Part shown: positions 1,184-38,448 of the stretch, piece by piece
Layout: each line of letters opens with the position of its first letter
Numbering within the stretch: the first letter of the stretch is position 1
NCBI GenBank assembly: GCA_964017835.1
Contig: CAXHMP010000004.1
Span: 1 to 38,448 of the forward strand
Origin: an uncultured Alphaproteobacteria bacterium
Lineage (GTDB): Bacteria > Pseudomonadota > Alphaproteobacteria > Rs-D84
Direction of reading: 5' to 3'
DNA: 38,448 nt
The notes under the pieces: generated by a model
What the model was told of the DNA's origin: nothing
The model's input: the letters and a program-made list of their open reading frames with translations, nothing else
The model's database searches: none
Made by a program: the position numbers and the translations under genes

Positions 1184-1267
1184 CGATTGGCCCTTTCTTT
1201 CCTTTGATTCAATTCTAGCAAATAAAGAATTTTGATTCAAGTCGCGATTTATGATAAAATCATATCA

Positions 1268-12332: not shown

Positions 12333-14924
12333 CTAGCCCTGGTTATCACCCATTTGTGTTTCGGTATGCCATTCGCGTTCACGACAAACATACGGGTCTT
12401 TCTTTTTTGTAAATATTGCCGCCAATGCCGAACCAATAACAAGAGCGCCAGCCGCGGCCCAGCCTGCAACAGGGATTGCCGATAGAAATGGTGCGGCGGC
12501 TAATGCGGCATACCCAGCACCCCAGGCGGCCCCCGTTGATGCTAGTACAGCGGTACCAATCGCGCCTGTTGTGACTGCGGCGCCAATTCCCGCCCCGACC
12601 GCGGCATTAGTTGCGAAATTTTTTCGATAGTTATCATCATATTCTTTATCAACTTGCATCCGTTTGGCGACTTCGGAATCCTTGCCGCAATATTTATCTA
12701 TCCCATACACGTGACAGATTTTATCTTCTGCTGACCAGGCCGCCCATACTGTGCGCGTTAACATATCATCCTTTTTTATCTCGGTACGCTTGTCCATCAA
12801 ACTCGTCAATTCATCATTCGATGCACTCCACCCTATGACACGCGCAACTGAATACGGATCATATGATGTTCGGCGGCCCCCACTATAGTTCTCTACCCCG
12901 CCTACACCCTCTATCACCAACGGCATCTGAAGGCACAACGTCGCCGCGCTGGACGCGTCCCCACTACTGTCCGCCTGCTGGGTTAATTCTGTTAAGCGAC
13001 CATTATAGTGGCGTTGCGCACGTAACAATCCGCTTTGGGTAATCACCAGACGATACGGATTCATGACCGTCGGATAACGCGCGTCGGTTTGTTCGTCGCG
13101 GCCGGTAATCTGGCTAAGGTCACGACCGCGGGTACACATCTGTAATTGCGGGTCGGACGTGTAAATGTTCAACACCGCGTCAATGGATGCCTGGATGGTT
13201 TCCAGTTCATCACGCACGCGGTCGATGATGCCCGAAACGTTGCCATACTTGGTATCATTCGGGGCCTGGCGCACGCGGTCGATATATCCGTCAATATCAA
13301 TTTTTCCCGCCTGGGGGTATTTGGCGTCACAGTCTTCGTTGCCGGCCTGCATACATTTGGCCCATTCTTCGCCGCCGCTGATTTTCAACAGGTCAAAATT
13401 AATCAAGCCCGATATGATATGTTGATTTCCGACTTTTTGATAGGCCAATGAATTCGCACCGACATATTCCTGGGTATCATAAGCGGCACAGGTTTGCGTA
13501 TCGCCGCAGATTTCAATCATGTAATCGCGCGCGCGGTTCAGGCAAAAATCCCGTTGTTCATTATCAATGTTCATATACACCGACATGGTAATGTCATCCA
13601 AATCTTCGATTGAAAAATTCGGATTTCCCTGGCGGCAGACGACCAATTTTTCCAGCGGACACATTTTGTGTAATGCGTCCAAATCCAGACCCAAACAGGC
13701 CCCAAAGTCCGCCCCGCACGCGTTGTCCGCGGTTAGGCAATTGTGAACTTCGGATGTGCAGGCATCGGGAAACATCCCCGCCAATTTACGGCGCGCTTCG
13801 TCCCAAATATTGGGAACAACGCTTTCACAGCGTTCGATTTCGATTTTACAAAAACTGCGTGCCATGTCCGGATACGCCAGGCATGAATCCATTGTCGCCG
13901 TGCCGGTTCCGGCGATGTCATCGCGACAGGCACGGACAATGCACTGGGTAACACTGTCCCAGCAGCCGGTGCGGAAATCTGATTCATGGTGTGTTTGTGC
14001 AACGGTCAGTTCGTTTTTAATACTGGCCAAAAAGGCGGGATAAACCTGGTCCCGGACATCAGTACAACTGTCCAGAACCGATGCGCACATGTCGGATTTG
14101 CGCGCCATGATTTCATCTGTCGTTTCCGATGCCGTCGGCATACATTCACCCCAATCCGCCCCGCAGACACCGTCGGATACAAAGCATTCATGATAGGCGA
14201 TGATACATTGGCCCAAATCATATTTGTTTGCCGCGCGATAGGCATCCAGGGCCGCCCCTTCTATTTCAGAACGTGCCGCCGTTCGTGCGTTGGCCAATTC
14301 TGTGCGCCGGGCCTTGATACTGTTTTGATAGGCCAAGCAATCGGATTTTATCGTTTGATTGTACAGCAGCGTCAGCATGTCCATATTGGCGTCACATTTG
14401 GCATCCAGACGGTCGCGGCACAATTCATAGGCCGCGTTTAATTTACGCCGGCCCGTCAAATCGCCAATTAATATTTCATCATCCCCGTCGTCGTCAGATG
14501 TTGTTGGTGTGTTAAAGACATCCAATGACACGCGGGATTTTTTTTGTAATGGTTCAGATTTCTGGGACGCCAATTTTTCAACGGCTGGCGTGGTTTCAAT
14601 TGCATTGATGGTGGCCATGGTGCGGGATTCTAAACGCTGAATCTGGTCATCAATTTCACGCCATTGGGTATCGTATTTTTCGCCGTCGTCCGAACAGGTA
14701 CAGCGCCCGCCGTTGGCATTGTCCATTAAACAAAAGGTGTCCAAGCATCCAAAAAGTTGTTCCTGGCAGTCCGAAGGGACAGTGGATTGCGTGCTTTTTT
14801 TTGCGATGGTTGTTCCCGCATTGATAGCCGAAACGGTGTTTTTGGTCGCGGCCGCCGCCCAAGCAACGTCTTGGACAAATATGATGCCAATCAAAAGGCG
14901 TGCAACAATGCGCAGCAAAGACAT
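12333..14924 (-). CDS. Large secreted Cys-rich protein with a C-terminal Gly/Ala-rich membrane anchor; family unknown
   Basis: The signal peptide is MSLLRIVARLLIGIIFVQDVAWAAAA. I counted about three dozen Cys, including the twice-repeated motif CGADWGEC / CGADFGAC. The C-terminal segment GAGIGAAVTTGAIGTAVLASTGAAWGAGYAALAAAPFLSAIPVAGWAAAGALVIGSALAAIF is glycine-zipper-like and hydrophobic. Confidence 0.75.
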   Translation of the reverse strand: MSLLRIVARLLIGIIFVQDVAWAAAATKNTVSAINAGTTIAKKSTQSTVPSDCQEQLFGCLDTFCLMDNANGGRCTCSDDGEKYDTQWREIDDQIQRLESRTMATINAIETTPAVEKLASQKSEPLQKKSRVSLDVFNTPTTSDDDGDDEILIGDLTGRRKLNAAYELCRDRLDAKCDANMDMLTLLYNQTIKSDCLAYQNSIKARRTELANARTAARSEIEGAALDAYRAANKYDLGQCIIAYHECFVSDGVCGADWGECMPTASETTDEIMARKSDMCASVLDSCTDVRDQVYPAFLASIKNELTVAQTHHESDFRTGCWDSVTQCIVRACRDDIAGTGTATMDSCLAYPDMARSFCKIEIERCESVVPNIWDEARRKLAGMFPDACTSEVHNCLTADNACGADFGACLGLDLDALHKMCPLEKLVVCRQGNPNFSIEDLDDITMSVYMNIDNEQRDFCLNRARDYMIEICGDTQTCAAYDTQEYVGANSLAYQKVGNQHIISGLINFDLLKISGGEEWAKCMQAGNEDCDAKYPQAGKIDIDGYIDRVRQAPNDTKYGNVSGIIDRVRDELETIQASIDAVLNIYTSDPQLQMCTRGRDLSQITGRDEQTDARYPTVMNPYRLVITQSGLLRAQRHYNGRLTELTQQADSSGDASSAATLCLQMPLVIEGVGGVENYSGGRRTSYDPYSVARVIGWSASNDELTSLMDKRTEIKKDDMLTRTVWAAWSAEDKICHVYGIDKYCGKDSEVAKRMQVDKEYDDNYRKNFATNAAVGAGIGAAVTTGAIGTAVLASTGAAWGAGYAALAAAPFLSAIPVAGWAAAGALVIGSALAAIFTKKKDPYVCREREWHTETQMGDNQG

Positions 14925-15023: not shown

Positions 15024-16796
15024 TCACACCAGATGCGCGTCGTGCAGTAATTGCGCCAGATAGGTGTCACTGATTTTGCGCAGGCCGTATTTGCCCAATG
15101 TTTCAACCAGCCACGGGAATTTCATTTCTGACAACTTCTTTTTATCCGTCAGGAAATACAGGCTCCGCAGCAAAACGCGTACGTCAAAGCACGAGCCGAA
15201 TACTTCGGGAACGCCGCGGTTGATGTTCAGCAGGGTATAGACGGCCTCCATCGCGGTGCGTACGGAATATTCGGTGGTGAACACCGTGTCGCGCACCGTT
15301 TCGGCATAGTTACCGATAAACGCCAGGTTGACCGAACCGTTTGGCACAACCAACGGCCGGTCGCCCAATGCACGCGGCATAAAGTATGTCGTGATAAACG
15401 GCATATGGCACGGCACGGTATTGGCGTGCGTGGTTGCGATTTCCATAATCTGGGATTCGGGAACGCCGATATGATACAGCCATTCGGCGCACAGTTCCGC
15501 GCCGGTGCATTCGGTAATTTTCTTGTTAATATAATTGCCGGGTTTGTCCGAAAACAGACCGTATGTCCAGACAATTAACTGATTCTTTTTCTGTTTCTTG
15601 AAATGTGGTTGGCGCGAAATGCTGAACCCGTAAAGCCAATTGGAATCCTTGATCGTGACGGGACCGCTGCTGACTATCGAACCGCTGTGCGGGTCTTTTT
15701 TGCAGATTTTTTCAATGTACGGGACCACGCTGTCGTCCAGCAGAGTTATCGTTGCCGACATAACCCAATTGGCCGCCGGGATGCGTTCGCAGAACTTTTC
15801 CGGGTGACCAAATTCCGGTGATTGGGCCGCGATTTTCTTCCACAGTTCCCATGACCCGCCCAGGCCAGTTGGTGTCGGCGCCGGGGTGTCGTTGGTACCG
15901 TATGTGCTGTTTTCCGTAATGGACCCGTTGGTTACAAAAACAAGGTCGTTTTCGGTCAGGTTAATCGTTTTTTTCCGGCCGCCGGTGATGGTTTCGATTT
16001 TTTTGGCGACTTTGCGTTTGGCGGCGCGGTCGATGACAATATTTGTCACCTGGGTATCATAATGAAATTGGACACCGCGTTCGGTCAGGTACCGCACCAA
16101 GGGCATAATCAGCGATTCATACTGATTATATTTTGTGAATTTCAATGCCGACATATCCGCCAATGTTCCCACGTGGTGGATAAAGCGCAGGATATAGCGC
16201 CGCATTTCCATTGCCGATGACCATGGTTCGAACGCAAACATTGTCGCCCAGTACAGCCAGAAATTCGATTCAAAGAATTCGTCGGTGAAAACCTGGTCTA
16301 TGGTTTTGTCCTGCAGGTCTTCTTCGCGCATCATCGCCAGGTTAATCAATTCCCGAATGGCGGTCGGCGTCAGGGTTAATTTACCGTCGGTCGGCAAACG
16401 TTTGCCCCGTTTTTCAATCACGCGGCAGTGCGAGAAAGACGGGTCGTCCTGGTTCAGCCAATAGAATTCGTCCAGGACCGAAATGTCGGGGTTTTCCAAT
16501 GACGGAATCGACCGAAACAGGTCCCACAGGGTTTCAAAGTGGGCCTCCATCTCGCGGCCGCCACGGATGATAAAGCCGCGTTGCGGGTTCCAGATGCCGT
16601 CCATGCTGCCGCCGGGGACGGACAGTTCTTCGAAAATATGAATCTTGTTTCCTTTCATGCCGCCGTCGCGAATCATAAAGACCGCGGCCGCCAACGACGC
16701 CAGGCCAGACCCCACCAAATACGCCGACTTTTTCACGGCGTCTTTGTTGGGGCGCGGCCGGGCAAATGCCTCGTAATTTCCACTGCTGTAATACAT
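15024..16796 (-). CDS. ohyA: Oleate hydratase (MCRA family, FAD-dependent)
   Basis: [15 protein letters not shown]...[21 protein letters not shown]...IHIFEE..PGGSMDG is the characteristic N-terminal FAD-binding region of MCRA/oleate hydratases. Length is 590 aa after trimming to the Met preceded by AAGGAG. Confidence 0.9.
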
Positions 16797-16917
16797 GTTC
16801 AACTCCTTTGGTTTATATCGATAAAACGATAATTCATTAGAGTAAGAGAATGTACAGGAGTGATTTCCCCGTTGCCGATGGTTGACATCGTATTGGCCAT
16901 GCTTTATAATTTCAAAT

Positions 16918-17037
16918 ATGAAGAAATTATTTTTGGGATTTTTATTGATGGCGGTGTTGGGCGTTGCGGCGTGCGGCGTCAAATCTGATTTAAGCCGGCC
17001 CGACGGCGCATTCCCCCGCAATTATCCAATTTATTGA
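16918..17037 (+). CDS. Small lipoprotein ORF (39 aa, LptM/YifL-like pattern); not in the ORF track
   Basis: [39 protein letters not shown] has a signal peptide, a lipobox AAC and the CG.K..L..P pattern. Its last 48 nt overlap the convergent gene 16990-18021. Confidence 0.4.
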
Positions 17038-26192: not shown

Positions 26193-26615
26193 ATGCTGGA
26201 TGGCATTCGCGTTTTTACCAAGGATGAATTATGGCGCCGGATTTTGGGCGAACTGGGCGCCGTGGTGTCCGATGTGCAATCCGGAACCGATATCGATTTT
26301 GATGCCATTAATCTGGCAAATGCCCCGATGTCGCCCGTGGAAATCAAAGCGGCACTGTTGTCGGCCCAGGGAAATGATAAAATTTTAAAGCAAATTTTCG
26401 GGCGGCCTGTGGCATTGCCCGGGGTTCAGGCGCGTATTGTCGTGGCCTTGGCCAAAAGCGGCGGAATGCGCGGCGCGGATTTGAAAGAGGCGCTGGGCTA
26501 TTCGCGCGATGCAGCAACCCATACCATCGATACGGCCATTTACCAATTGCGTCGAACATATGGGCGGGACTTTATCCAAAATGACCGTGGGGTGTATCGA
26601 ATTGGAAAAATATAA
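26193..26615 (+). CDS. Protein with a C-terminal BirA-type winged-helix (HTH_11-like) domain
   Basis: ARIVVALAKSGGMRGADLKEALGYSRDAATHTIDTAIYQLRRTYGRDFIQNDRGVYRI parallels the E. coli BirA N-domain LKLIALLANGEFHSGEQLGETLGMSRAAINKHIQTLRDWGVDVFTVPGKGYSL. It overlaps the birA catalytic ORF in another frame. Confidence 0.6.
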   Translation: MLDGIRVFTKDELWRRILGELGAVVSDVQSGTDIDFDAINLANAPMSPVEIKAALLSAQGNDKILKQIFGRPVALPGVQARIVVALAKSGGMRGADLKEALGYSRDAATHTIDTAIYQLRRTYGRDFIQNDRGVYRIGKI

Positions 26616-27270
26616 AATCATATCCTTGGGCGATGTGTCCAGCACCCAAACGTATGCCCACGATTTAATCGAACAGGGACATGTTGTCGCGCCATGTGTC
26701 GTGACCGCCGAAACCCAGACCGCCGGGCGTGGTCGATTTAGTCGCGTGTGGGTGTCAAAACCGGGAAACCTGTACGCCAGCTTTGTTTGGCAATGCCCGC
26801 GTGCCGAGCCGCGGTTGTCCTATGCGGTGGCGGTTGCCGTGGCCGAGGCATTGATGGCGTTTGATGTGCCGGCAAAAATCAAATGGCCCAATGATATTTT
26901 GGCCGATGGTAAAAAAATATGCGGGATTCTGATTGAATACCACAGTAATTTTGTTGTGGTCGGAATTGGCATTAATGTTCAATCAAATCCCGATGGGGTC
27001 GGATATGAAACTGCGCGCGTTGCCCAATACGCCAATGGCGTCATGCCCCAGGATGTAATGCGGGTGTTGGCGCGTGCGCTGGACAAATGGCGGGGGATGG
27101 ATTTTGAATCGGTGCGCGCACGATGGATGCAATTGGCGACGGGGATTAACACCATGGTGACATACCGCGGCGCCCGTGCAGAATTAATCGGTATTGATGA
27201 AAACGGGGCGTTAGTTTTACGTCGCGATGGACGTAATATATTGGCCTGGGGCGATGAAATTATTATTTAA
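26581..27270 (+). CDS. birA: Biotin--[acetyl-CoA-carboxylase] ligase, catalytic part
   Basis: The biotin-binding loop is QTAGRGRFSRVWVSKPGNLYASF. KWPNDILADGKKICGILIE is present. The start is uncertain (ATG 26581, GTG 26587 or TTG 26602). Confidence 0.88.
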   Translation: MTVGCIELEKYKIISLGDVSSTQTYAHDLIEQGHVVAPCVVTAETQTAGRGRFSRVWVSKPGNLYASFVWQCPRAEPRLSYAVAVAVAEALMAFDVPAKIKWPNDILADGKKICGILIEYHSNFVVVGIGINVQSNPDGVGYETARVAQYANGVMPQDVMRVLARALDKWRGMDFESVRARWMQLATGINTMVTYRGARAELIGIDENGALVLRRDGRNILAWGDEIII

Positions 27271-27453: not shown

Positions 27454-27864
27454 ATGCAATTAAGACTGATAAAAAATACCGAACCGGCACGTGCGGCCCT
27501 GTATAAACTGGCGCGTATTATTTATGCGGAAACACGCGGACTGTCCCTGGCCGAGGCCGAGGCCTTGGCGTCGATGGTGGGAAACCTGTGCGCGCAGACG
27601 GGACGTGACATGAATGATATTGTGGCCGATGCGGATTTATTTGAATCTTTACGGCCACAATCAGACCGGCATTCATATTTAAATGTCAGTGTGGATGCGC
27701 GGGCCTTTCAAATGTGTTTGCGCGTGGTCCAGAAATTAATCAAGGGAAATCTGCCGGACAGGGCGCGTGGTGCCACGCGGTTTCATCGGGTGGAATTTCT
27801 GCCCGATTGGGCCGTGGCGCGCGGATATATCAAAGAAACGCCGCAACTGATGTTTTATCTGTGA
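27454..27864 (+). CDS. Cell wall hydrolase, SleB-like (Hydrolase_2 family); probable endolysin
   Basis: LARIIYAETRGLSLAEAEALASMVGN and ATRFHRVEFLPDWA...MFY match the SleB-type cell wall hydrolase pattern (ARxIYGEARGE ... FH....P.W ... FY). Confidence 0.75.
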   Translation: MQLRLIKNTEPARAALYKLARIIYAETRGLSLAEAEALASMVGNLCAQTGRDMNDIVADADLFESLRPQSDRHSYLNVSVDARAFQMCLRVVQKLIKGNLPDRARGATRFHRVEFLPDWAVARGYIKETPQLMFYL

Positions 27865-27884: not shown

Positions 27885-28106
27885 GTGAACAAGTTTATCA
27901 AGGGTGGGTTCTTGGCCGGAAAAAGGACATACATTGTTTCCGGTATTGGAATTTTATCAGCCGTTGGGGCGTATTTGGTGGGCGATGCCGATATATTTGG
28001 CATGTTACAGACTATCTTTACGCTGGGCGGTATTTATTTCTTGCGCAAGGCAAGTGAAAACAAAGGGGAAGAAAATGGAAAACATTCCAGAAAAATTTCT
28101 GAATGA
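27885..28106 (+). CDS. Small membrane protein, holin-like (GTG start)
   Basis: VNKFIKGGFLAGKRTYIVSGIGILSAVGAYLVGDADIFGMLQTIFTLGGIYFLRKASENKGEE has two hydrophobic segments and a charged tail. AAGGAAA precedes the GTG. It lies directly after the hydrolase. Confidence 0.45.
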   Translation: MNKFIKGGFLAGKRTYIVSGIGILSAVGAYLVGDADIFGMLQTIFTLGGIYFLRKASENKGEENGKHSRKISE

Positions 28107-28731
28107 AGATGGAACGCTGAACACGGATGCGCTGATGAAATCGTATTCGGAATTGGAAAAGAAAATGGGGGCAATGATTTCGGTGCCGGCCGATGATGCA
28201 GACGCGGCCGCGCGTGAAAAATTCAATCGTGCCATCGGTGTTCCCGGCAGTGCCGATGATTATCCAAAAGATTCGATATTTGATGATGAAAATGTGCGTG
28301 CGAAATTTCTGGAAATTGGTTTGACATCAAAACAGGTGGAAAAAATTTATAAAATTGCCGAAGAATTTTTGTCGCCGGTCTTGGGACAAATTTTACAATC
28401 CCAGGATGAAGCCCAGGCGATGGCGGAATTGGAAAAGTTTTTTGGCGGTACGGATAAAATGAACGATGCATTAAATGCAATTAACACGTTCGGTGAAAAA
28501 TTTTTACCGGCCGATGCGTTTGATGCGCTGTGCGCCACACCCCAAGGAATCCAAAGCATGTACAAGATGATGCAATCAATGGAACCGGATGTTAAAACGG
28601 ATAAAAGCGCCATTGAAAATTTAAGTGATGCAGATTTGCGACGCATGATGCGTGACCCAAAATATTGGCGTGAACACGATGCGGAATACGTGCGAAAAAT
28701 TGAAAACGGTTTTAAAAAATTATATTCATAA
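28075..28731 (+). CDS. Putative capsid scaffolding/assembly protein
   Basis: MENIPEKFLNEDGTLNTDALMKSYSELEKKMG...DDYPKD is acidic and helical, a pattern I associate with podovirus scaffold proteins. It lies upstream of the capsid gene. The ORF opens at 27904; it is trimmed to the Met after AAAGGGGAAG. Confidence 0.5.
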   Translation: MENIPEKFLNEDGTLNTDALMKSYSELEKKMGAMISVPADDADAAAREKFNRAIGVPGSADDYPKDSIFDDENVRAKFLEIGLTSKQVEKIYKIAEEFLSPVLGQILQSQDEAQAMAELEKFFGGTDKMNDALNAINTFGEKFLPADAFDALCATPQGIQSMYKMMQSMEPDVKTDKSAIENLSDADLRRMMRDPKYWREHDAEYVRKIENGFKKLYS

Positions 28732-29510: not shown

Positions 29511-29538
29511 GCGCCACTTGTATGGGGCGCTTTTTTTT
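29511..29538 (+). terminator. Terminator-like hairpin immediately upstream of the capsid gene RBS
   Basis: GCGCC..GGCGC is followed by T8. A further hairpin TTCAGTCA/TGACTGAA plus T6 lies at 29374-29414. Confidence 0.45.
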
Positions 29539-29560
29539 AACAACAAAAAAAGGAATGTTT

Positions 29561-30382
29561 ATGTCTGTTTCAATAGACCAAGTCTTCGTAAAGCAATTCG
29601 AAGCGGATGTCCATTTGGCTTATCAGCAGATGGGTACCAAGTTGCGTGCAACTGTGCGCAGCAAATCTGGTGTTGTCGGTGCATCGACAACTTTCCAAAA
29701 AGTAGGCAAGGGCGTTGCCAGCACCAAGTCTCGCCATGGGATTGTGCCGGTGATGAACCTGAATCATGAACCGGTGGAATGTCTGTTACAGGATTATTAC
29801 GCCGGTGACTGGGTCGATGCGTTGGATGAATTGAAAATCAATATCGATGAACGTCGTGTTGTGGCGTCGGCCGGCGCGTATGCGTTGGGACGCAAAACCG
29901 ATGAACTGATTATCAAGGCCATGGGCCAGGCCACCGTTGATGCCGGTGATTATTCAACAAAACTGACCAAGGACTTGATTCTGACGGCGGTTGAAAAGTT
30001 GAATGAAAAAGATGTTCCCGATGATGGACGTCGTTTCGCAGTTGTCGGTGTTCAGCAGTGGAACCAATTGTTGGAAATGAGTGAATTTGTCTCCGCCGAC
30101 TTTGTGGGTGATGCCAATCCGTTGGTGAACGGGTTTGAATCCAGAAAATGGTTGGGCATTACATGGGTGTTGCACAATGGTTTGCCGGTTGATGGGGCGA
30201 ACCGCGACTGTTTTGTCTATCACGCGTCGGCTATCGGTCATGCGTGTGGCCAAGAAGTCAAATCGGACATCACATGGCATGGTGAACGTGCGGCACACTT
30301 TATCAGTAACAGTATGTCCCAGGGCGCTGTTTTAATCGATGGCGATGGTATTGTGCGCGTCAAATGCAAAGAAAATGCATAA
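29561..30382 (+). CDS. Putative phage major capsid protein
   Basis: It is about 273 aa. FVKQFEADVHLAYQQMGTKLRATV...AYALGRKTDELIIKAM resembles capsid proteins of small podoviruses as I remember them. It lies between scaffold-like and tail genes, and an AAAGGAA SD is present. Confidence 0.65.
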   Translation: MSVSIDQVFVKQFEADVHLAYQQMGTKLRATVRSKSGVVGASTTFQKVGKGVASTKSRHGIVPVMNLNHEPVECLLQDYYAGDWVDALDELKINIDERRVVASAGAYALGRKTDELIIKAMGQATVDAGDYSTKLTKDLILTAVEKLNEKDVPDDGRRFAVVGVQQWNQLLEMSEFVSADFVGDANPLVNGFESRKWLGITWVLHNGLPVDGANRDCFVYHASAIGHACGQEVKSDITWHGERAAHFISNSMSQGAVLIDGDGIVRVKCKENA

Positions 30383-30740: not shown

Positions 30741-31259
30741 ATGCTTACCAAAATTGATTTATGTTCAATGGCATTGTTGAAACTGGGCGAGGCACCCATT
30801 CAATCAATGACCGATGATACCGCGGCCGCACAATTGGCGCGAACATTGTTTGATCCAACAATTGAAACTTTGTTGGCCATGCATCCGTGGCGGTTTGCAT
30901 GTCGTATGTTTGAACTGAACAAAAATACAGACCAAAATTTTCAAATTCCGGCCGAAGTGCTGCGCGTGTTGAAATGCGACGGCCAGGTTATCGGGGACCG
31001 TGTTATCGCGCCGGGAAAAACGCTGCGGATGTGGGCGATTGTTCGCCAGAATGTTGAAAACTTCCCCAGTTATTTCGTGTCACTGGCGGTGACCAAGTTG
31101 GCGATGGAATTTTGTATCCCGTTGGTGGGGGAACAGAATATTTTGCGCATGCTGATTGCGCTGTATGAATCCGAAATGCAGGCCGCCAAGTTTATCGACA
31201 GCACCATTTCAATTAATCCAAAAATTGATGATTTTTCATTAATCAGTTCGCGTTTCTAA
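30741..31259 (+). CDS. Tail tubular protein A (T7 gp11)-like adaptor
   Basis: DLCSMALLKLGEAPIQSMTDDTAAAQLARTLFDPTIETLLAMHPWRFA parallels T7 gp11 VNDILASIGEPPVSTLEGD..A..A...L......IQSRGWTFN. Confidence 0.55.
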   Translation: MLTKIDLCSMALLKLGEAPIQSMTDDTAAAQLARTLFDPTIETLLAMHPWRFACRMFELNKNTDQNFQIPAEVLRVLKCDGQVIGDRVIAPGKTLRMWAIVRQNVENFPSYFVSLAVTKLAMEFCIPLVGEQNILRMLIALYESEMQAAKFIDSTISINPKIDDFSLISSRF

Positions 31260-31276
31260 AAATAAAGGATGACATA

Positions 31277-32989
31277 ATGGGGAATTTTATCAAAACGCAA
31301 AATTCATTTGCAAATGGTGAAGTCGCGCCAGAATTCTTTGCACGCGAAGATATTAACGGCATGTCGCGATTGGAAAACATGGATGTGTTGACCGGGGGTG
31401 GTTTGGCACGTCGGCGCGGGTTGGCGACGGTCGCAAATCTGGGGCGGGATGCGCGGTTGATTCCGATGACGGTTGCGGAAAATGAAAATTATCTGTTGGC
31501 GGTGGCGGCGGGTCATATATACATCTTTAAAAACGGCCAGAAAATCCAAGATTTAATTGCGCCGTGGTCGGTCGACGCGTTACAGAAATTGCAATATGCC
31601 CAACGGTTCGACACAATTATATTTGTTCATCCCGATTACCAGCCCCAGGTGTTGTCCAAAAATGGTGCGATGTTCAAACTGAATGTATTCAATTTTACCG
31701 TCAGTGATGATATGGATGTTTATATTCCGTTTATGAAGTTTGACGACGCCAGTGGTATCAAAATTTCCGTCACAACCCATTCCAATGGAAACAATTACGC
31801 GACATTTACAACCAGTTCGGCGTTTTGGACGCCTGAAAATGTCTTGGGGCGTGTCTTTTTATTAGGACGCCAGTGGCGGATTGCCGAATATGTCAGTCCG
31901 ACTGTTGTTGTCGCAATGACCAATGGTCAATGGAATTTGCCGTCGGGGCCGGTGTCCGACTGGTCCGAAGCCGCGTTCGGAACACGACGCGGGTGGCCGT
32001 GCAGTATTTCATTCCACCAGGACCGATTGGTGTTCGGCGGGTCGCGGTCATGGCCCAGTGGGGTGTGGATGTCCAAAGTTGGCCAGCACCACAACTTTGA
32101 TGCAGGTACCGGATTGGATGACGAGGCCATCTTTTTAACCCTGTTGTCCGAACAGCGTCAGCAAATCTGTACCGTGGTCAGCAGTGATAATCTGCAAATT
32201 CTGACGTCGGTGGGTGAATGGGCGATTTCCAGCAAGCCGCTGACGCCGTCCGCGGTTGATATCAAACAGCATACCGCCGTCGGCAGTGTGGCATCGCGAT
32301 ATTTGCCGCCGCAAAAAATCGAAGGCTGTACCGTCTTTATTTCCAGCAGCAAGAAAGATATTCGCGAATTGGCGCTGGACGAATTGGGGGTCAATTACAA
32401 TGCCAATGATTTGTGCGCATTGTCCAAACATTTGATGCAAGGGCCGGTGGATGTGGCCTATAACGAAGAAACGCATCAATTGTTTGTGGTGTTGGAAACG
32501 GGGGATATTGCCGTTCTGAATAAAAATTCGGCGTTGGGTATTGCTGCGTGGGGATTGTACAAAACCCAGGGAACGTTCAAGTCTGTGGCGGTTATGGACG
32601 GCGAAACGTATGTTGTCGTTGAACGTGGAAACGCAATCGGGATTGAAAAATTTTCGGACCAGGCATTAAATGATGCCGGCTCATACGGATTTTCGTACAC
32701 GGCGTCCGCGTTACCAATGTTAAGTGGCAAGCATACGCCCAAAAGAATTCGAATTCGTAAAATTACCGCGCGCGTGTTAAAGACAAAATCTGTCTTTATC
32801 AATGGTGTGCGCGCCCCCATTCCCAACGATGTCCAATTGCCAGATTCACCAGGCTTTACCGGCGACGTGACAATCAATTTGTTGGGGACGGCAATCAATA
32901 CCATTGACCCCATGTGGACAATTCACGGCAGTGAACAAATGCCTGCAACAGTCTTATCCGTCACCATGTACGGGTGGTATTTAATCTAG
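31277..32989 (+). CDS. Tail tubular protein B / nozzle-like protein
   Basis: The N-terminal pattern QNSFANGEVAPEFFAREDINGMSRLENMDVLTGGGLARRRG is typical of podovirus nozzle/stabilisation proteins as I remember them. It is 570 aa and lies directly after the gp11-like gene. Confidence 0.5.
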   Translation: MGNFIKTQNSFANGEVAPEFFAREDINGMSRLENMDVLTGGGLARRRGLATVANLGRDARLIPMTVAENENYLLAVAAGHIYIFKNGQKIQDLIAPWSVDALQKLQYAQRFDTIIFVHPDYQPQVLSKNGAMFKLNVFNFTVSDDMDVYIPFMKFDDASGIKISVTTHSNGNNYATFTTSSAFWTPENVLGRVFLLGRQWRIAEYVSPTVVVAMTNGQWNLPSGPVSDWSEAAFGTRRGWPCSISFHQDRLVFGGSRSWPSGVWMSKVGQHHNFDAGTGLDDEAIFLTLLSEQRQQICTVVSSDNLQILTSVGEWAISSKPLTPSAVDIKQHTAVGSVASRYLPPQKIEGCTVFISSSKKDIRELALDELGVNYNANDLCALSKHLMQGPVDVAYNEETHQLFVVLETGDIAVLNKNSALGIAAWGLYKTQGTFKSVAVMDGETYVVVERGNAIGIEKFSDQALNDAGSYGFSYTASALPMLSGKHTPKRIRIRKITARVLKTKSVFINGVRAPIPNDVQLPDSPGFTGDVTINLLGTAINTIDPMWTIHGSEQMPATVLSVTMYGWYLI

Positions 32990-33011: not shown

Positions 33012-33359
33012 ATGGGACAAGCATTGACCGAAGTGACAAGTATTTTGGATTACAAAAAAGCCAAATCAGAGGCGAAAAAAGAAAAAAACAAAATTATGGA
33101 ACAAATTGCCGCTGATGAAAAATCCAAAACAAATCTGGTGAAAAAAACTTTGGCCGCCCAGCGCGCAAAGTACGGCGCCGCGGGAATGACCGGGCGCGGT
33201 ATGACCGAAGACGCGGTCTTAAAGCGTCTGAGAGAGGAAACCGAAGAACCATTTAACCAGAAAAAACAAGCCAATCTGGAAAAATTAAGTAAAATCAAAG
33301 TTCAAAAGCCAAATATATTGAAATCGTTATTGGCCAGATTTGACGAATTAATTGGTTAA
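33012..33359 (+). CDS. Small Lys-rich coiled-coil phage protein
   Basis: This is a 115-aa ORF with an AAAGGAGAAA SD. I recognised no family. Confidence 0.5.
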   Translation: MGQALTEVTSILDYKKAKSEAKKEKNKIMEQIAADEKSKTNLVKKTLAAQRAKYGAAGMTGRGMTEDAVLKRLREETEEPFNQKKQANLEKLSKIKVQKPNILKSLLARFDELIG

Positions 33360-33383: not shown

Positions 33384-33935
33384 GTGATGTATAAAATTTC
33401 ATATACTGGGGACGGGGAAACAACCGAGTTTTTGTTTTCCTTTCCGTTTTTCCAGGATGCCGATATTCGTGTTGCGATTGACGACACGATTTTGGACCCG
33501 GACCAATACGGTGTGATTGCCAATGATGAGTTTGACGGTGGGCGGGTCGTGTTGGCCACGGTGCCATCCGTGGGTGAACGCGTCGATATATTCCGCCAAA
33601 TCGCATTGGCGCGCATTATCGATTACCAGCCAACCGCCAAAATTGACCCGGAACATTTGAACGCCGATTTTAATTTTTTATTAGAAGCGTTTCGTGACCT
33701 GCGTAATGTTGAAGTGGATTTATCACAATGGAACAACACGTTCGACAATGTGATGGAATTTTTGAACTATACAATGGAAATAATCAAAGACAAATTATCC
33801 GGGGGCGGGGTATTGGGGTTGTACATGAATCTGTTGACGGTGTTGGACGGGGCGTTGCCCAAACTAATCAATGATTACGGCAGCATTACCGAACCCGCCA
33901 ATAATGAAAATGGCGATGATTACGGATTACTATAA
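33384..33935 (+). CDS. Tail fibre protein, T7 gp17 N-terminal (tail-attachment) domain only
   Basis: YTGDGETTEFLFSFPFFQDADIRVAIDD..YGV....GGRVVLATVPSVGERVDIFRQ..LARIIDY...I..EHLNADFNFLL parallels T7 gp17 Y.LDGSNRDFNIPFEYL...V.V......Y.......I.L......G..I.I.R.T...R.VDF.DGS.L....LN. No receptor-binding C-terminal domain follows. Confidence 0.6.
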   Translation: MMYKISYTGDGETTEFLFSFPFFQDADIRVAIDDTILDPDQYGVIANDEFDGGRVVLATVPSVGERVDIFRQIALARIIDYQPTAKIDPEHLNADFNFLLEAFRDLRNVEVDLSQWNNTFDNVMEFLNYTMEIIKDKLSGGGVLGLYMNLLTVLDGALPKLINDYGSITEPANNENGDDYGLL

Positions 33936-34530
33936 TTTTTTGGATGAATGGAACCAGTTGTTGAACTTTCAAACGCCGGCACATCATAAAAAAATTATGG
34001 CGTTTTTGGTTGATGTATTGAACGGAACGCCACGGCGTGGATTACTGATGGCGTTTCGGCATTCGGGAAAATCAACCGTTGTCGGGATTTTTGCCGCATG
34101 TTTGTTATATCTGCGGCCCCAGACGCGCATTCTGATTTTATCCGCCGAAAGCGCATTGGCATCGCGGATGGTGGCGCATGTGCGGCATATCCTGGAAAAC
34201 CATCCACGGTGCAGCGATATGATTCCGGCGGTGAAAAAAGAATGGGGAACACATAAAATAACCATCAATCGTCCCATCGGTATTCGTGAACCGTCCGTCA
34301 TCTGCCAGGGGGTACATGGAAACATTACCGGATTGCGTGCGGATTTAATTATCTGTGACGATGTCGAGGTTCCAAATACCAGCAACACCGCCGCCAAGCG
34401 CAGCGCATTGCGGGAACGATTACGGGAATTGGATTTTATTTTGTCCCCGACCGGCACCATGATTTATGTCGGCACGCCGCATGCCATGGACACCATCTAT
34501 CGGGTCCAGGACGAGGATGAAGATGAGTAA
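33904..34530 (+). CDS. terL: Terminase large subunit, N-terminal ATPase half only
   Basis: Walker A is AFRHSGKST, Walker B is DLIICDDVE and the coupling motif is YVGTPH. The ORF ends at ..RVQDEDEDE*. The start is uncertain (33871, 33904, 33910 or 33916) and overlaps the end of the fibre gene. Confidence 0.72.
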   Translation: MKMAMITDYYNFLDEWNQLLNFQTPAHHKKIMAFLVDVLNGTPRRGLLMAFRHSGKSTVVGIFAACLLYLRPQTRILILSAESALASRMVAHVRHILENHPRCSDMIPAVKKEWGTHKITINRPIGIREPSVICQGVHGNITGLRADLIICDDVEVPNTSNTAAKRSALRERLRELDFILSPTGTMIYVGTPHAMDTIYRVQDEDEDE

Positions 34531-34546
34531 ATGCCCGCCGCGCGCC

Positions 34547-35218
34547 TTAGTTCGTGGTGGCGGGACGATTGTCGGCGGCGTCCTTGATGCTGCTGACAAA
34601 GATGCGCAGCCGCGACAGTAATTCCAGGCCGGCGTCCCCGAACATCGGTAAATACGTTTCGTATTCGGGCATGTCCGCCTGCAACTGGGCGCGTGACCGT
34701 TCGGACAACGGGGCATCCAACAGGTCGTTTGCCACCTTCCATAAAAAATAGGCGCGGGCGGTCTTGGTCACCGTCGCCCATTTTTCTAACAACTGGGGCT
34801 TGCCATTCAAGGCCGCGCGAATGCCGACCAGCCATTCGTCGCCAAATTTTTTCACCACACCCAACGATTGCAGCCGTGCCAGGCCGTCTTGGTCCGGGGT
34901 GAAATCATTAATCCCCGATTCCAATTCCCGCCATTCGGACGGCGTCAGCGGTATGGTTGCAACCGTGTCCGCCATCATCCCGCCATAGGGCAGTAAATCG
35001 TGGTCAATCGAATCCATGGGGGTGTGGCCCGTGCGCAGATTTTCAATATGCCGCGCCAGCAATTTGCCCGTCGGCAAGTTTTGCAGTTCGGCCATTACAT
35101 CCGGGGTGGCATCGGCAATGAACACTTTGTTCACCGCCGCCCATCCCCCAAAAATCACGTGTTGTTGACGATACAGGTTCAACAAACGTTGGGCAATGAT
35201 ATTTATTTTTTGATTCAT
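34547..35218 (-). CDS. Hypothetical protein (223 aa), last gene of the antisense module
   Basis: This is an intact ORF whose stop lies 16 bp from the terL-N stop. I recognised no motif. Confidence 0.6.
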   Translation of the reverse strand: MNQKINIIAQRLLNLYRQQHVIFGGWAAVNKVFIADATPDVMAELQNLPTGKLLARHIENLRTGHTPMDSIDHDLLPYGGMMADTVATIPLTPSEWRELESGINDFTPDQDGLARLQSLGVVKKFGDEWLVGIRAALNGKPQLLEKWATVTKTARAYFLWKVANDLLDAPLSERSRAQLQADMPEYETYLPMFGDAGLELLSRLRIFVSSIKDAADNRPATTN

Positions 35219-35242
35219 TCCGGTCCCCCCATCGCGGAAATG

Positions 35243-36250
35243 TTATTCCATAACAATCATGACGACTTTGTGCATGGTCTTGGGCATAATCTTTTCATCG
35301 GGATTTCCAACATGTCCCACCAATTTGCCGCGGGCGTCGGTTTGGACCATGGCGATTTGCGCGGTTGCCGCCGCTTCGGGGGCCAATGTCGCAAAGTCCG
35401 TATCAATGCAGACCGCCATGTCACCCGCCGTGGCCGGAATATCCGCATCGGCAAAAACATAACATTTTTCCGGCAACATCCCACCCAACCGCTTGGTATT
35501 GGGGACAACGGCATAGATGCTCTTGCGGCCTTCGAGTGTCATGGGCGCAACAATCATTGTCTTGTCGGATTTTTTAAAGGCAATGGCCTTGGGCGATGGT
35601 GTGCCGAAAACCGGGACCAATTTTTTGCGCGCACTGTCGTACAGTTTGGCGCCGTACAGACTGCTGTGCATGTCCAGTGCGGACATCGGATTGCCTGGAA
35701 CCAGGACGGATTTAACGCGTTCTTTGACCTTGCTGATTTGTTTGTTTAATTCGCCGGCCTTGTACAGGTTGGAAATTTCATCAAACATGTCACCGACGGT
35801 GTAACCAAATGACTTCGCCAAGGGTTCAATTTCATCCTGATAGATTTCACGTTGGCCCACTTCGATTTTATGATACACCGACAGGGTCATGCCCGCGTCC
35901 TTGGCCGCCTGGGCAATGGTCTTGCCACTTTTTTGACGGATTTTGCGCAGGCCACTGCCGAAGACTTTCAGACCGCTGCCTTCGTTATCGGTCAGGCGGC
36001 GTTTGATTTCGTTTTGCCAGGCATCGGCAACTTCGTCCGATTCCTTGATAAAGATATCCGATAATTTGCATCCCAAAATGGTGCAGATATTCAGCAACTG
36101 TTTCTGGTTCAGGCGACGGACACCCTTTTCAATCTTGGACACAGCGGACAAAGACAGATGCGATTGACGCGCCAATTCGGTCATTTTCATCCCAGATGCC
36201 AGGCGGATATTGCGAATATTGTTCGGAAAAATTATTTCTTCTTGGGCCAT
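35243..36250 (-). CDS. Repressor-like protein with two XRE-type HTH domains and a C-terminal S24 (LexA/CI)-like domain
   Basis: HTH 1 is IRNIRLASGMKMTELARQSHLSLSAVSKIEKGVRRLNQKQLLNICTILGCKLSDIF. HTH 2 is LRKIRQKSGKTIAQAAKDAGMTLSVYHKIEVGQREIYQDEIEPLAKSFGYTVGDMF. The C-terminal region VPVFG...LGGMLPEKCYVFADADIPATAGDMAVCI is S24-like, but GGM replaces the G(N/M)SM nucleophile motif. Confidence 0.78.
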   Translation of the reverse strand: MAQEEIIFPNNIRNIRLASGMKMTELARQSHLSLSAVSKIEKGVRRLNQKQLLNICTILGCKLSDIFIKESDEVADAWQNEIKRRLTDNEGSGLKVFGSGLRKIRQKSGKTIAQAAKDAGMTLSVYHKIEVGQREIYQDEIEPLAKSFGYTVGDMFDEISNLYKAGELNKQISKVKERVKSVLVPGNPMSALDMHSSLYGAKLYDSARKKLVPVFGTPSPKAIAFKKSDKTMIVAPMTLEGRKSIYAVVPNTKRLGGMLPEKCYVFADADIPATAGDMAVCIDTDFATLAPEAAATAQIAMVQTDARGKLVGHVGNPDEKIMPKTMHKVVMIVME

Positions 36251-36272
36251 GGATAAACTCCTGCGTAATTTC

Positions 36273-36291
36273 TTGACAAAATAATAGTCAA
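36273..36291. promoter_or_regulatory. Palindromic operator-like site between dnaB and the repressor gene
   Basis: TTGAC-AAAATAATA-GTCAA lies 23-41 bp upstream of the repressor start codon and overlaps a TTGAC -35-like box on either strand. Confidence 0.3.
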
Positions 36292-36318
36292 TTTTTCAGA
36301 AGTTGGCAAGTGAAATAA

Positions 36319-37878
36319 TTATAAATCGTCGGGAATATCGTCCAAATCCGGCATCGCGTCGGGCGTGGGCGCTTCGTATGACGTCATGGTCGGGGCCGGT
36401 GTCGCGGGGGACGAATCAAATGAATTGGCGGCGCGTGCCTCGAACTCATCCAGGTTGTCGAACAAGCTGTAATCACCCTGGAAAGCCAAATGGACGGTTT
36501 CAGGACGACCATGACGGTTTTTGCCGATAATCACGTCGGCCTTGCCCCGGGCGCGTTCCAGACGCTTTTGCCAGTTTTCGACCATGTTGGAATTGGATGT
36601 GTTGGAAATGCGTTCGGATGGGTCGCGGTTCGCCAAATAGTATTCTTCGCGGTACGTGAACATGACCAAGTCAGCGTCCTGTTCAATGGACCCCGATTCA
36701 CGCAAGTCCGCCAATTGCGGCCGTTTGTCGTCACGTGATTCAACGCTGCGCGATAATTGGGACAGGGCGATAACCGGGACATCCAATTCCTTGGCCAGCA
36801 TTTTAAGTCCGCGCGTGATTTCGGAAATTTCCTGGACGCGGTTATCATTGCGCCGGCCGCCAGGCGACGTCATTAACTGTAAATAATCGATGACAATCAG
36901 CGCAATCCCGCCGCATTTGCGGGCCAGACGCCGCGCGCGGGTGCGCATCATCGGCACCGACATGCCCGGCGTATCGTCAATAAACAGTGGCACGCGACCG
37001 ATGGCCGCACTGTATTGCGACATCTTTAAAAAATCTTCGTCCGATAAAGTTCCTTCGCGCATGGCGGATGCGGGAACCTTGGACTGGGATGACAAAACAC
37101 GCGCCGCCAATTGGGATGCCGACATTTCCAAACTAAAGAATGCAACGGCCCCCTTGTATGCGGGATTGGCGCGTTCACTAAGAATGGCGTTGGCGGCATT
37201 AAAGGCAATGTTCATCGCCAGGGTTGTTTTACCCATGGCGGGACGGCCCGCGATGATAATCAAATCGCTGTGGTGCAGGCCGCTGATGGATTTGTCCAGC
37301 GCGTCCAGACCCGTCGTCAGACCCGACAGTTTACCGTCGGCCTTGTAGGCAACCTCGGCCTCGGCCAGGGCGGATTGCAACGCGGTGGCGATGGATGAAA
37401 CCTCGCGTTCGGCGTCCCCACTGGTCGACAGGTCAAACAGTTTTTGTTCGGCAATTTCAATCTGGCGCGAAACGGGATTGTCCAGGTCTTCGACAAAGGC
37501 CGCGTCTGTAATCGTTTGGCCAATGTTAATCAGTTCGCGGCGCATGGCGTTGTCATAGACAATCCGGCCGTATTGGTCGACGTTGACAACCGTCGCCCCG
37601 GCGCCCGCCAGTTGCGTCAGGTAATCGACCCCGCCCACGCTGTCCAGCGTTCCCTGTTGTTCCAGGTAATTTTTCGCCGTGATGATGTCAAACGGAATGC
37701 CGGCCGCAAACTGACGCTGGGCCAGTTTGTAGATTTCCTGGTGCGCGGGGTGGGAAAAATGTTCGGGCTTTAAAAATTCCGCCACACGTTCCAGCGCCCG
37801 ATTGTTCATCAGGACCGCCGCCAAGACGGCCTGTTCGGCCTCTAGGTTAGTTGGCAAAGTTTTGGGAGTAAAGTCCAT
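36319..37878 (-). CDS. dnaB: Replicative DNA helicase, DnaB family (phage-borne)
   Basis: The N-terminus is LPTNLEAEQAVLAAVLMNN. Walker A is IIAGRPAMGKTTLAMNIAFNAA, Walker B is IVIDYLQLM, and ALSQLSR and SGSIEQDADLVMF are present. The ORF is trimmed from 38148 to MDFTPK. It has an acidic C-terminal tail. Confidence 0.88.
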   Translation of the reverse strand: MDFTPKTLPTNLEAEQAVLAAVLMNNRALERVAEFLKPEHFSHPAHQEIYKLAQRQFAAGIPFDIITAKNYLEQQGTLDSVGGVDYLTQLAGAGATVVNVDQYGRIVYDNAMRRELINIGQTITDAAFVEDLDNPVSRQIEIAEQKLFDLSTSGDAEREVSSIATALQSALAEAEVAYKADGKLSGLTTGLDALDKSISGLHHSDLIIIAGRPAMGKTTLAMNIAFNAANAILSERANPAYKGAVAFFSLEMSASQLAARVLSSQSKVPASAMREGTLSDEDFLKMSQYSAAIGRVPLFIDDTPGMSVPMMRTRARRLARKCGGIALIVIDYLQLMTSPGGRRNDNRVQEISEITRGLKMLAKELDVPVIALSQLSRSVESRDDKRPQLADLRESGSIEQDADLVMFTYREEYYLANRDPSERISNTSNSNMVENWQKRLERARGKADVIIGKNRHGRPETVHLAFQGDYSLFDNLDEFEARAANSFDSSPATPAPTMTSYEAPTPDAMPDLDDIPDDL

Positions 37879-38448
37879 GTCCGATATGGTATATAAAAAA
37901 TTTTCGATTTCAACGCCTTTTTTGCGCGGGTACAAACAATTGCGAATTCCCATTGTCGATGATGGCGGGAATCCGGAATGGCCGTCGGTTTTTCCGCTGG
38001 AAAAAATTGATGAAATGCGCATCGCCGTCGGCGCCCGGCATTTTGCCGCCCAAATGATGCTGCGCCCCATGAACGATGAACAGGCGCGTCTGGATGCGGC
38101 GGCACTGCATCTGTACACGGCGGAATTCGATCCGCGGACCGCGCGCATCGGTGAATTTGTAATTACCGGGGCGGCCGCGTATTGGGACCCGTCGGGCGGG
38201 CGTCATAAATCCGACGGCAGCGTGTGCGTCCTGGTCTACCGCGATGATAAAAATCGCCGCGTGTTTGTGCATGATGTGCGTTATCTGATTGTCGATGACA
38301 ATGACCTGCATCCGTTGGCGCGGCAATGTGAAATGGTATTGGATTTTATGACGTGTCACGGCCTGCGCGCGATTGGTATTGAAACCAACGGGATTGGTAA
38401 CGCATTGCCCGAAATTATGCGCGATGCCGCCGCCCGTCGCGGCACCCC
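37877..38448 (+). CDS. terL: Terminase large subunit, C-terminal nuclease half (partial, runs off the window; not in the ORF track)
   Basis: My translation is MSDMVYKKFSISTPFLRGYKQLRIPIVDDGGNPEWPSVFPLEKIDEMRIAVGARHFAAQMMLRP...ITGAAAYWDPSGGRHKSDGSVCVLVYRDD...GIETNGIGNALPE. It shows the TerL linker (WP..F....I...R...G...F..Q..L.P) and the first nuclease Asp motif (DPS.G...D.S). A GGGAG SD lies 8 nt upstream. Confidence 0.72.
   Translation, partial: MSDMVYKKFSISTPFLRGYKQLRIPIVDDGGNPEWPSVFPLEKIDEMRIAVGARHFAAQMMLRPMNDEQARLDAAALHLYTAEFDPRTARIGEFVITGAAAYWDPSGGRHKSDGSVCVLVYRDDKNRRVFVHDVRYLIVDDNDLHPLARQCEMVLDFMTCHGLRAIGIETNGIGNALPEIMRDAAARRGT

Follow-up and report, generated by a model that had tools for sequence, protein, structure and literature searches.

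In textbooks, the large terminase is a motor made of one chain with two domains, and models of how it generates force need a lid that moves against the ATPase core within this chain. Discontinuous large terminase genes (terL) are known from phages: terL may be interrupted by introns, inteins or homing-endonuclease genes, and some phages have separate genes for the ATPase and the nuclease; these cases are either self-splicing or consist of adjacent genes on the same strand. The ATPase domain of solved terminases ends in a lid (linker) subdomain that caps the active site, was proposed to act as a lever and is connected to the nuclease by a flexible linker (PMC5389665). Here we describe a terL of the T7 type that is encoded in two pieces in a 38,448 bp stretch of DNA (contig CAXHMP010000004.1; the whole stretch is called the window below), which is chromosome of a Candidatus Enterousia-like bacterium of the order Rs-D84, gut Alphaproteobacteria. 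The split is clean, ancient and under selection, and it lies in a chromosomally fixed cluster of structural and packaging genes only, around a dnaB gene of the cellular type. A two-chain terminase in a domesticated T7-type element that resembles gene transfer agents (GTAs) is the probable explanation.

The first piece, TerL-N, is encoded on the plus strand at 33904..34530 (an alternative ATG lies at 33871) and was recognised by NCBIfam and PHROG families and by alignments. It carries Walker A (FRHSGKST), Walker B (DLIICDDVE) and motif III (YVGTPH) and stops soon after the latter, ending in an acidic, non-conserved tail. The second piece, TerL-C, recognised by PHROG 38, starts on the same strand at ATG 37877 and runs off the window, so that 37877..38448 holds the first 190 of its 281 codons. 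Its full length of 281 aa (P0273) was obtained from the locus of the window's own species (L085). Both PHROG 38 and the NCBIfam family termin_lrg_T7 (NF033889) are covered in adjacent, non-overlapping parts, PHROG 38 by TerL-N at positions 268-461 and by TerL-C at 466-630, and NF033889 at positions 2-192 and 334-499 of 500, respectively. Against NF033889 TerL-N scored 221 bits (cutoff 150) and TerL-C alone 101.5 bits, which is under the 150-bit cutoff set for the whole protein. Unsplit relatives divide in the same manner: residues 1-196 of P0125 and 9-196 of P0124 align to TerL-N, and residues 197-393 and 198-385, respectively, to TerL-C. Summed, the 208 and 281 aa of the two pieces give the length of unsplit relatives (480-510 aa), and no remnants of duplicated terL halves were found on a search of the window. 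The two open reading frames (ORFs) are one T7-type large terminase, cut cleanly and with no part missing or duplicated; the single polypeptide with ATPase and nuclease that is typical of T7-type TerL is replaced by two ORFs. A first-pass annotation of the window had proposed two halves of one TerL, which this coverage bears out, and its coordinates, TerL-N motifs and TerL-C start at 37877 were found as described when re-read from the sequence.

In an alignment with 16 unsplit relatives, the cut site is a variable-length, often acidic loop between GTPH..IY and the conserved FL.GF..L.LP; the Enterousia TerL-N ends and TerL-C begins exactly at this loop, after motif III. TerL-N aligns to residues ~18-215 of the T7 and PhiV-1 TerL and has 208 residues, compared with 250-360 in isolated TerL ATPase domains in the Protein Data Bank. 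The cut is within the ATPase domain as solved TerLs define it, where it probably separates the catalytic core from the lid, and not at the ATPase/nuclease linker, where the first pass had placed it. In AlphaFold2 models, confidence drops after residue 155 of TerL-N and is low for residues 1-70 of TerL-C, and residues 71-270 of TerL-C form a confident RNase H-like fold (block-mean pLDDT mostly ~81-96). The low-confidence stretches may mark where each chain would need the other. The TerL-C model was matched by Foldseek to PhiV-1 TerL and to the nuclease domains of P22, Sf6, SPP1 and gp17, and the nuclease residues expected of a T7-type TerL (D104, E169, D246, D247 and D250 of TerL-C) are invariant. 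Since the lid is the C-terminal part of the ATPase domain in solved terminases (PMC5389665), TerL-C was read as lid plus nuclease: it probably consists of a lid/linker region of ~70-95 residues that completes the ATPase domain, followed by the RNase H-like nuclease, with residues 1-70 as the putative lid.

Relatives of TerL-N were detected in at least 569 genomes when a single genome was searched for each species. Species loci were taken from the best 80 of these, and their layout was judged where a contig spans the locus. These 80 are gut metagenome-assembled genomes (MAGs) labelled Candidatus Enterousia, Alphaproteobacteria or Rickettsiales, among them the circular genome OZ007020.1 (958,618 bp). 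Every spanning contig has the order TerL-N, a gene for a 223-aa protein, a gene for an XRE-family regulator, dnaB and TerL-C, with the three middle genes on the minus strand. The halves are 3177-3662 bp apart (75 loci); of these 75 loci, 45 show the 2-nt overlap between the dnaB and terL-C start codons, and in 37 the TerL-N stop shares 4 nt with that of the 223-aa gene. A misassembly is excluded in practice, since the junctions recur in assemblies made independently for 80 species, and the concern of the first-pass annotation about ~34.53 and 37.88 kb was not realised. All 120 best TerL-N homologues have 196-221 aa. Among the best 120 TerL-C homologues, 116 have 278-284 aa, three have 261-267 aa and one (P0272) has 402 aa. 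The latter contains an exact internal tandem duplication of ~120 nuclease-domain residues (HITGSVLYWDPSSG...EPVL), probably an assembly artefact and possibly a real duplication.

Both halves are under purifying selection. TerL-N is intact in 86 of 86 loci, and TerL-C wherever the contig allows, with the exception of one locus (L060). Synonymous sites are saturated between species (pS ~0.73-0.75), and dN/dS was taken as the median over pairs with dS <1.5, which gave 0.10 for TerL-N and 0.16 for TerL-C; the intervening genes gave 0.21 (223-aa gene), 0.08 (XRE gene) and 0.06 (dnaB). Walker A, Walker B and GTPH are invariant or nearly so in 83 TerL-N sequences, as are the TerL-C nuclease signatures YWDPS, ETNG and DDGLDA across species. 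Further, the terminase halves and DnaB diverge in step, with Spearman correlations of 0.69-0.84 between their pairwise distances. In the Rs-D84/Enterousia lineage the split is both ancestral and under selection. A naturally two-chain terminase had been one of the options named at first pass, and it is the one that agrees with a split present in all spanning loci, with intact ORFs, with invariant catalytic residues and with the low dN/dS of both halves.

In the window, the halves are separated by 3346 bp that hold the three minus-strand genes. Only 16 bp lie between the stop of TerL-N and that of the convergent 223-aa gene, and the ATGs of dnaB and terL-C overlap by 2 nt (CATG), all of which confirms the earlier description. 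The Shine-Dalgarno-like GGGAG before terL-C (37861-37879) is the reverse complement of dnaB codons 5-6 (Pro-Lys), so that the same bases serve both divergent genes; a Shine-Dalgarno-like motif of the kinds searched for is kept before terL-C in only 27 of 75 loci. Since the halves are co-oriented and correctly ordered and their junction is clean, the 3.3-kb segment could be imagined to be excisable, or the halves to be joined by protein or RNA trans-splicing. Developmentally excised elements are known in other bacterial genes. Nevertheless, we regard this as extremely improbable. There is no recombinase among the three insert genes (HTH, DnaB and 223-aa), and direct or inverted repeats at the insert edges amount to short chance-level matches, none of them at the junctions. 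Excision would remove a cellular-type dnaB, and the insert is present in every spanning species locus. As to splicing, TerL-C has its own conserved ATG. Beyond its last aligned residue TerL-N extends by only ~7 residues, which are not conserved, and the conserved part of TerL-C is preceded by no more than 17. Intein halves, which would need ~100 aa behind the N-extein and ~35 aa ahead of the C-extein, do not fit into such short tails. Intron halves find no space either, since opposite-strand coding sequence comes within 16 bp of TerL-N and 0 bp of TerL-C. An excisable element that restores terL, as had been considered at first, is thus contradicted by the locus, and the earlier exclusion of an intron or intein stands.

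The gene next to TerL-C, dnaB (36319..37878, minus strand), encodes a replicative DNA helicase of 519 aa that was assigned to the cellular type by NCBIfam equivalogs. It scored 623.2 bits against the cellular equivalog NF006606 (cutoff 540) and 511.1 bits against TIGR00665 (cutoff 385.25), whereas the 410.8 bits against TIGR03600 (phage_DnaB) are under the cutoff of 498.65. With the lowest dN/dS it is the most conserved gene of the locus, and it is kept in L060, where phage genes are deleted. By its family it would serve the cell itself as replicative helicase. The uncultured order Rs-D84, of which Enterousia is a member, has genomes of generally <1 Mb (PMC12306168); from this genome size, the dN/dS of 0.06 and the retention in L060 we infer that this dnaB is the sole copy of the genome.

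The XRE-family regulator (35243..36250, minus strand; 335 aa) has two HTH domains (Pfam HTH_3, E 2.1e-20, two stretches) and a C-terminal domain of 170 aa. The C-terminal domain resembles the S24 domain of CI-like repressors beside unsplit clusters weakly (hhalign probability 12%); in this alignment the GDSM motif of the repressors is not kept, and its Ser is faced by an Asn. The best sigma-70-like promoter match of the region (36281..36309, minus strand; TTGCCA-17-TATTAT, 10/12 positions, a consensus match only) lies in the 68 bp that separate dnaB from the XRE gene. The XRE protein may be a regulator of the cluster. The third gene (34547..35218, minus strand, convergent with TerL-N) encodes a lineage-specific protein of 223 aa which matched no Pfam, PHROG or NCBIfam family. 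It has 1265 homologues; the 120 listed have 207-233 aa and are unannotated proteins of the lineage, the few named ones being called hypothetical.

The terminase halves belong to a phage-derived cluster of 10 genes with head, tail, lysis and terminase functions (~10 kb), which starts immediately after the host gene lipB (26509-27270). The first gene (27454..27864, plus strand, as are all genes up to TerL-N) encodes a putative cell-wall hydrolase of 136 aa, an endolysin candidate based on a weak Pfam Hydrolase_2 match of its orthologues; it is intact in 61 loci (dN/dS 0.31), and its homologues come after terL in unsplit relatives. It is followed by a scaffolding protein of the T7 capsid-assembly type (27904..28731; Pfam Phage_T7_Capsid, E 4.5e-10), whose true start probably lies ~57 codons downstream of 27904; in L085 and L001 it was called as 218 aa. 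The major capsid protein (29522..30382; Pfam Phage_capsid_2, E 9.5e-73) is 78-89% identical across species (dN/dS 0.08). Internal stops seen in the scaffold and capsid genes were dismissed, as they are confined to over-extended N-termini of the queries. A conserved structural protein of 172 aa (30741..31259; dN/dS 0.18) was assigned by synteny only and has no family match: in split and unsplit elements it stands between the capsid and the 570-aa tail protein, the slot of tail tubular protein A in T7-type phages, position being the sole basis for this comparison. The 570-aa tail protein itself (31277..32989; PHROG 376 'tail protein', E 1.9e-79) is intact in 74 loci (dN/dS 0.20). A coiled, charged protein of 115 aa (33012..33359), without a Pfam or PHROG match, is conserved in 77 loci (dN/dS 0.21). 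The last gene before TerL-N, whose start it overlaps, encodes a 183-aa protein with the N-terminal (tail-attachment) domain of the T7 tail fibre (33384..33935; PHROG 1640 'tail protein', E 8.8e-11; Pfam Phage_T7_tail weak, E 0.0034). Of the 80 species loci, 13 (e.g. L010, L027, L042, L051 and L053) yielded no such fibre-like gene, and in many of them the 115-aa gene is followed almost at once by TerL-N, so that this tail component varies between species. After the insert, relatives including L085 continue with TerL-C, a portal protein (Head-tail_con, 407 aa), a Bbp19-like protein and an 85-aa protein. Strains of one species (L001:17200-19088, L003:17062-19044) differ in extra genes (178 + 429 aa, 660 aa or none) between the 78-85-aa gene and the host genes, and L001-L004 carry a 158-aa protein with an Mtd_N domain (BPP-1 tropism determinant) near them; these variable genes may encode exchangeable receptor-binding proteins.

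The split gene, the lack of replication and integration genes and the compact, remnant-like size could be expected of a defective prophage whose terL was destroyed by an insertion or rearrangement and which is now decaying. The locus L060 (Candidatus Enterousia sp. SGB_4572; L060:7500-14600) adds to this picture with two deletions. One of them joins capsid residues 10-82 to the fibre near its residues 113-183, with loss of the tail genes; the other makes TerL-C residues 4-89 run into Bbp19, with loss of the nuclease and the portal. TerL-N, the 223-aa gene, the XRE gene and dnaB are intact there, and the decay is either a real loss or a collapse of the MAG assembly. Decay as a general explanation is very unlikely: although synonymous sites are saturated, the halves and all structural genes of the cluster are intact with dN/dS of 0.07-0.31 in ~70-85 independent species genomes, the chromosomal site is fixed, and neutral DNA is not expected to last in such strongly reduced host genomes. 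Recent gene conversion from an active phage could make these dN/dS values an artefact, but no closely related active phage was found in the phage collection. Inactivation by a replication/immunity cassette, as the first pass had offered, does not fit a fixed cluster of structural genes under purifying selection with a dnaB that passes the cellular cutoff (623 vs 540), and to speak of a prophage here is misleading.

An active temperate phage or satellite, with its remaining genes elsewhere or beyond the window, was also considered, since unsplit relatives occur in different circular permutations, which suggests past independent integrations of a circular form. The odds of this are very slight. 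lipB precedes the cluster in 63 of 63 Enterousia loci with enough sequence, and host genes lie on both sides. No integrase, polymerase or other phage genes were found within ±10 kb (Pfam on called genes and the main ORFs of the window; the rest of the genome was not searched). The terminase halves diverge together with dnaB, and when the ends of the window were joined, no continuation of TerL-C was found at its start, so the window is not a circular contig. What is found at the locus is characteristic of viriforms, namely structural and packaging genes only, at a fixed site under purifying selection.

Host genes dominate the rest of the window. Pfam scans of 1-27 kb revealed housekeeping proteins (GAPDH, MiaA, PriA, GrpE, a SurA-like chaperone and LipB) and a homologue of DNA gyrase/topoisomerase IV subunit A. 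Also encoded are a VirB11/T2SSE-type secretion ATPase (1232-2227, plus strand) and an MCRA-family, fatty-acid hydratase-like protein (15024-17021, minus strand), both in a reduced genome, and an 863-aa ORF without a Pfam match amid the housekeeping genes (12333-14924, minus strand). On its downstream side the cluster is bordered by different genes depending on the species, rpsF-rpsR-rplI in the window's own species and UPF0102 in others. In L085 (L085:12626-14985) a 206-aa minus-strand gene lies between the cluster and rpsF-rpsR-rplI. In many bacteria the rpsF-rpsR-rplI operon adjoins dnaB, and its place beside the cluster in L085 may be a trace of how dnaB entered terL. An origin of the split by two nested inversions in a rplI-dnaB neighbourhood was considered and dropped, the downstream context being inconsistent between species.

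Taken together, these results are best accommodated by the two-chain terminase of a domesticated, GTA-like element. The cluster is of T7-like ancestry and has been inherited vertically downstream of lipB. TerL-N would supply the P-loop ATPase core up to motif III, and TerL-C the rest of the ATPase domain (lid/linker), the nuclease domain and the C-terminal tail; the chains would pair non-covalently and rebuild the packaging motor, with an ATPase site completed across both polypeptides. The XRE-type regulator may control the cluster, and the whole cluster may act like a gene transfer agent or a similar domesticated particle. The retention of ~10 kb in host genomes of <1 Mb argues for a function. 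Association of the two chains, packaging activity, particle production and a regulatory role of the XRE gene are what the conserved genes lead us to infer.

Several points weigh against a working packaging motor. A consensus scan for promoters and terminators gave no convincing promoter for terL-C, whose upstream region is dnaB coding sequence. No small terminase gene (terS) was recognised in family scans of the locus, and T7-type internal core proteins appear to be missing there, the rest of the genome having been left unsearched for both. With no internal core proteins recognised and a fibre of only 183 aa, the particle may be incomplete, and at least in L060, where most structural genes and one half of TerL-C are gone, the cluster is dispensable. 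The main remaining rival draws on several of these points and holds that the halves are kept for other functions, either as an ATPase or nuclease exapted alone or through overlap with signals of the essential genes next to them, and that the cluster no longer packages DNA. In favour of it, the 5' region and promoter of dnaB must lie inside terL-C, the 3' end of the 223-aa gene overlaps TerL-N, and L060 keeps TerL-N though the TerL-C nuclease, the portal, most of the capsid gene and the tail genes are deleted. Yet the overlap with neighbours concerns a few bases, whereas both halves are under purifying selection over their full lengths with invariant catalytic residues, and the conservation of the capsid, portal, scaffold and tail genes equals or exceeds that of the halves, which is sensible only if particles are made. 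We therefore consider a non-packaging function unlikely, though it deserves more weight than decay, an active phage or excision.

The nearest full-length TerLs have 480-510 aa and are 45-51% identical to the Enterousia protein. Unsplit terL is carried by Rhodospirillales and further Alphaproteobacteria, at least 554 species genomes in all, including Magnetospirillum, Thalassospira, Terasakiella, Caenispirillum, Roseomonas, Micavibrio and other gut lineages, and also in IMG/VR proviral contigs of 10-20 kb. These loci were retrieved with an alignment of unsplit relatives; a single-sequence query (P0124) retrieved none. The search for uninterrupted or identically split alleles that had been proposed at first pass thus gave both, the identical split in Enterousia and unsplit genes in the other alphaproteobacterial species. 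Unsplit loci carry the same structural genes in several circular permutations that differ by lineage. Two annotated clusters from gut genomes (L205:1618-12119 and L180:8005-19392) are ~10 kb long, contain nothing but structural genes and are bordered by host genes, one by Lnt and ATP synthase and the other by YhdP and hydrolases. A divergent HTH and peptidase S24 repressor stands at the cluster edge in both, and ~1.4 kb upstream in 22 of 80 unsplit loci. In the loci compared, no dnaB, XRE gene or 223-aa gene was found near the unsplit clusters. Among phages, the T7 group has TerLs with 34-36% identity over the N half; the phage collection held no close relative of either half and almost no matches to the C half.

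The unsplit T7-like clusters (loci L168-L247 and L088-L167) look like an undescribed GTA-like family. A bolder proposal, which we put forward as doubtful, is that an undescribed T7-like GTA family extends across Alphaproteobacteria, that its motor became an obligate two-chain one in Rs-D84/Enterousia, and that the wedge of helicase and regulator genes might tie particle production to the cell's replication state; given the overlapping starts of dnaB and terL-C, transcription of the terL-C/portal operon would then have to run head-on through dnaB. A full-text search of the literature returned no description of the element, of a T7-like alphaproteobacterial GTA or of a terminase split around dnaB.

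The 243-position family PHROG 4758 ('terminase large subunit') is matched by TerL-N over nearly its whole length, which hints that ORFs with only the N half exist in phage databases. P0150, P0210 and P0265 are among proteins of ~200-215 aa that cover the N half only at 34-42% identity; such proteins may be independent split terminases or fragments at contig ends. Because discontinuous terL is known and PHROG 4758 is matched end to end, the two-chain terminase is a variant and not a new category. New are the position of the cut, the age of the split and the embedded essential gene. The TerL fold tolerates a break between core and lid, and a natural cut at this place that selection has preserved in hundreds of species is a ready tool to separate the roles of both. 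A T7-type, structural-only cluster at fixed sites is indicated for more than 500 alphaproteobacterial species, including ones with genomes of <1 Mb that are not expected to keep useless DNA. If these clusters make particles, GTAs would gain a new viral ancestry and would also reach the abundant, uncultured bacteria of the gut. Automated annotation would label such loci 'broken prophage', an error that is avoided by knowing that the split is ancestral and selected.

Compared with the described GTAs, the Enterousia cluster shares with RcGTA, CcGTA and BaGTA a phage-derived set of head, tail, terminase and lysis genes without replication or integration genes, vertical inheritance at a fixed site, purifying selection and an occurrence in Alphaproteobacteria including reduced genomes. 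It differs in ancestry, since its scaffold, portal and TerL match T7-type families (Phage_T7_Capsid, Head-tail_con and termin_lrg_T7), whereas RcGTA is HK97/siphovirus-like, and in its split terminase. In extent, its ~10 kb of structural genes are similar to FpGTA I (10.5 kb) of the podovirus-like FpGTA of Faecalibacterium (PMC12946183). Its unsplit sisters (L205, L180, L176 of Caenispirillum and L238 of Thalassospira) have homologous portal, scaffold, capsid, 172-aa, tail, terL and hydrolase genes, with 55-68% identity of the capsid and 45-51% of TerL. They differ by a single terL of 470-510 aa without an XRE/dnaB module inside, by other gene permutations and by an S24 CI-like repressor at the edge (22 of 80 loci). 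With interrupted phage terL genes the locus shares the discontinuity, and it differs by antisense cellular genes between the parts and by a cut upstream of the lid. Finally, T7 gp19 and PhiV-1 TerL have the same order of Walker A, Walker B, motif III, lid region, RNase H-like nuclease and C-terminal DDGLDA, and the models of the halves match the PhiV-1 TerL structure (8dgc_E). Unlike these phage proteins, the Enterousia terminase resides in a bacterial chromosome and is encoded as two polypeptides 3.3 kb apart, with opposite-strand cellular genes between them and the cut inside the ATPase domain.

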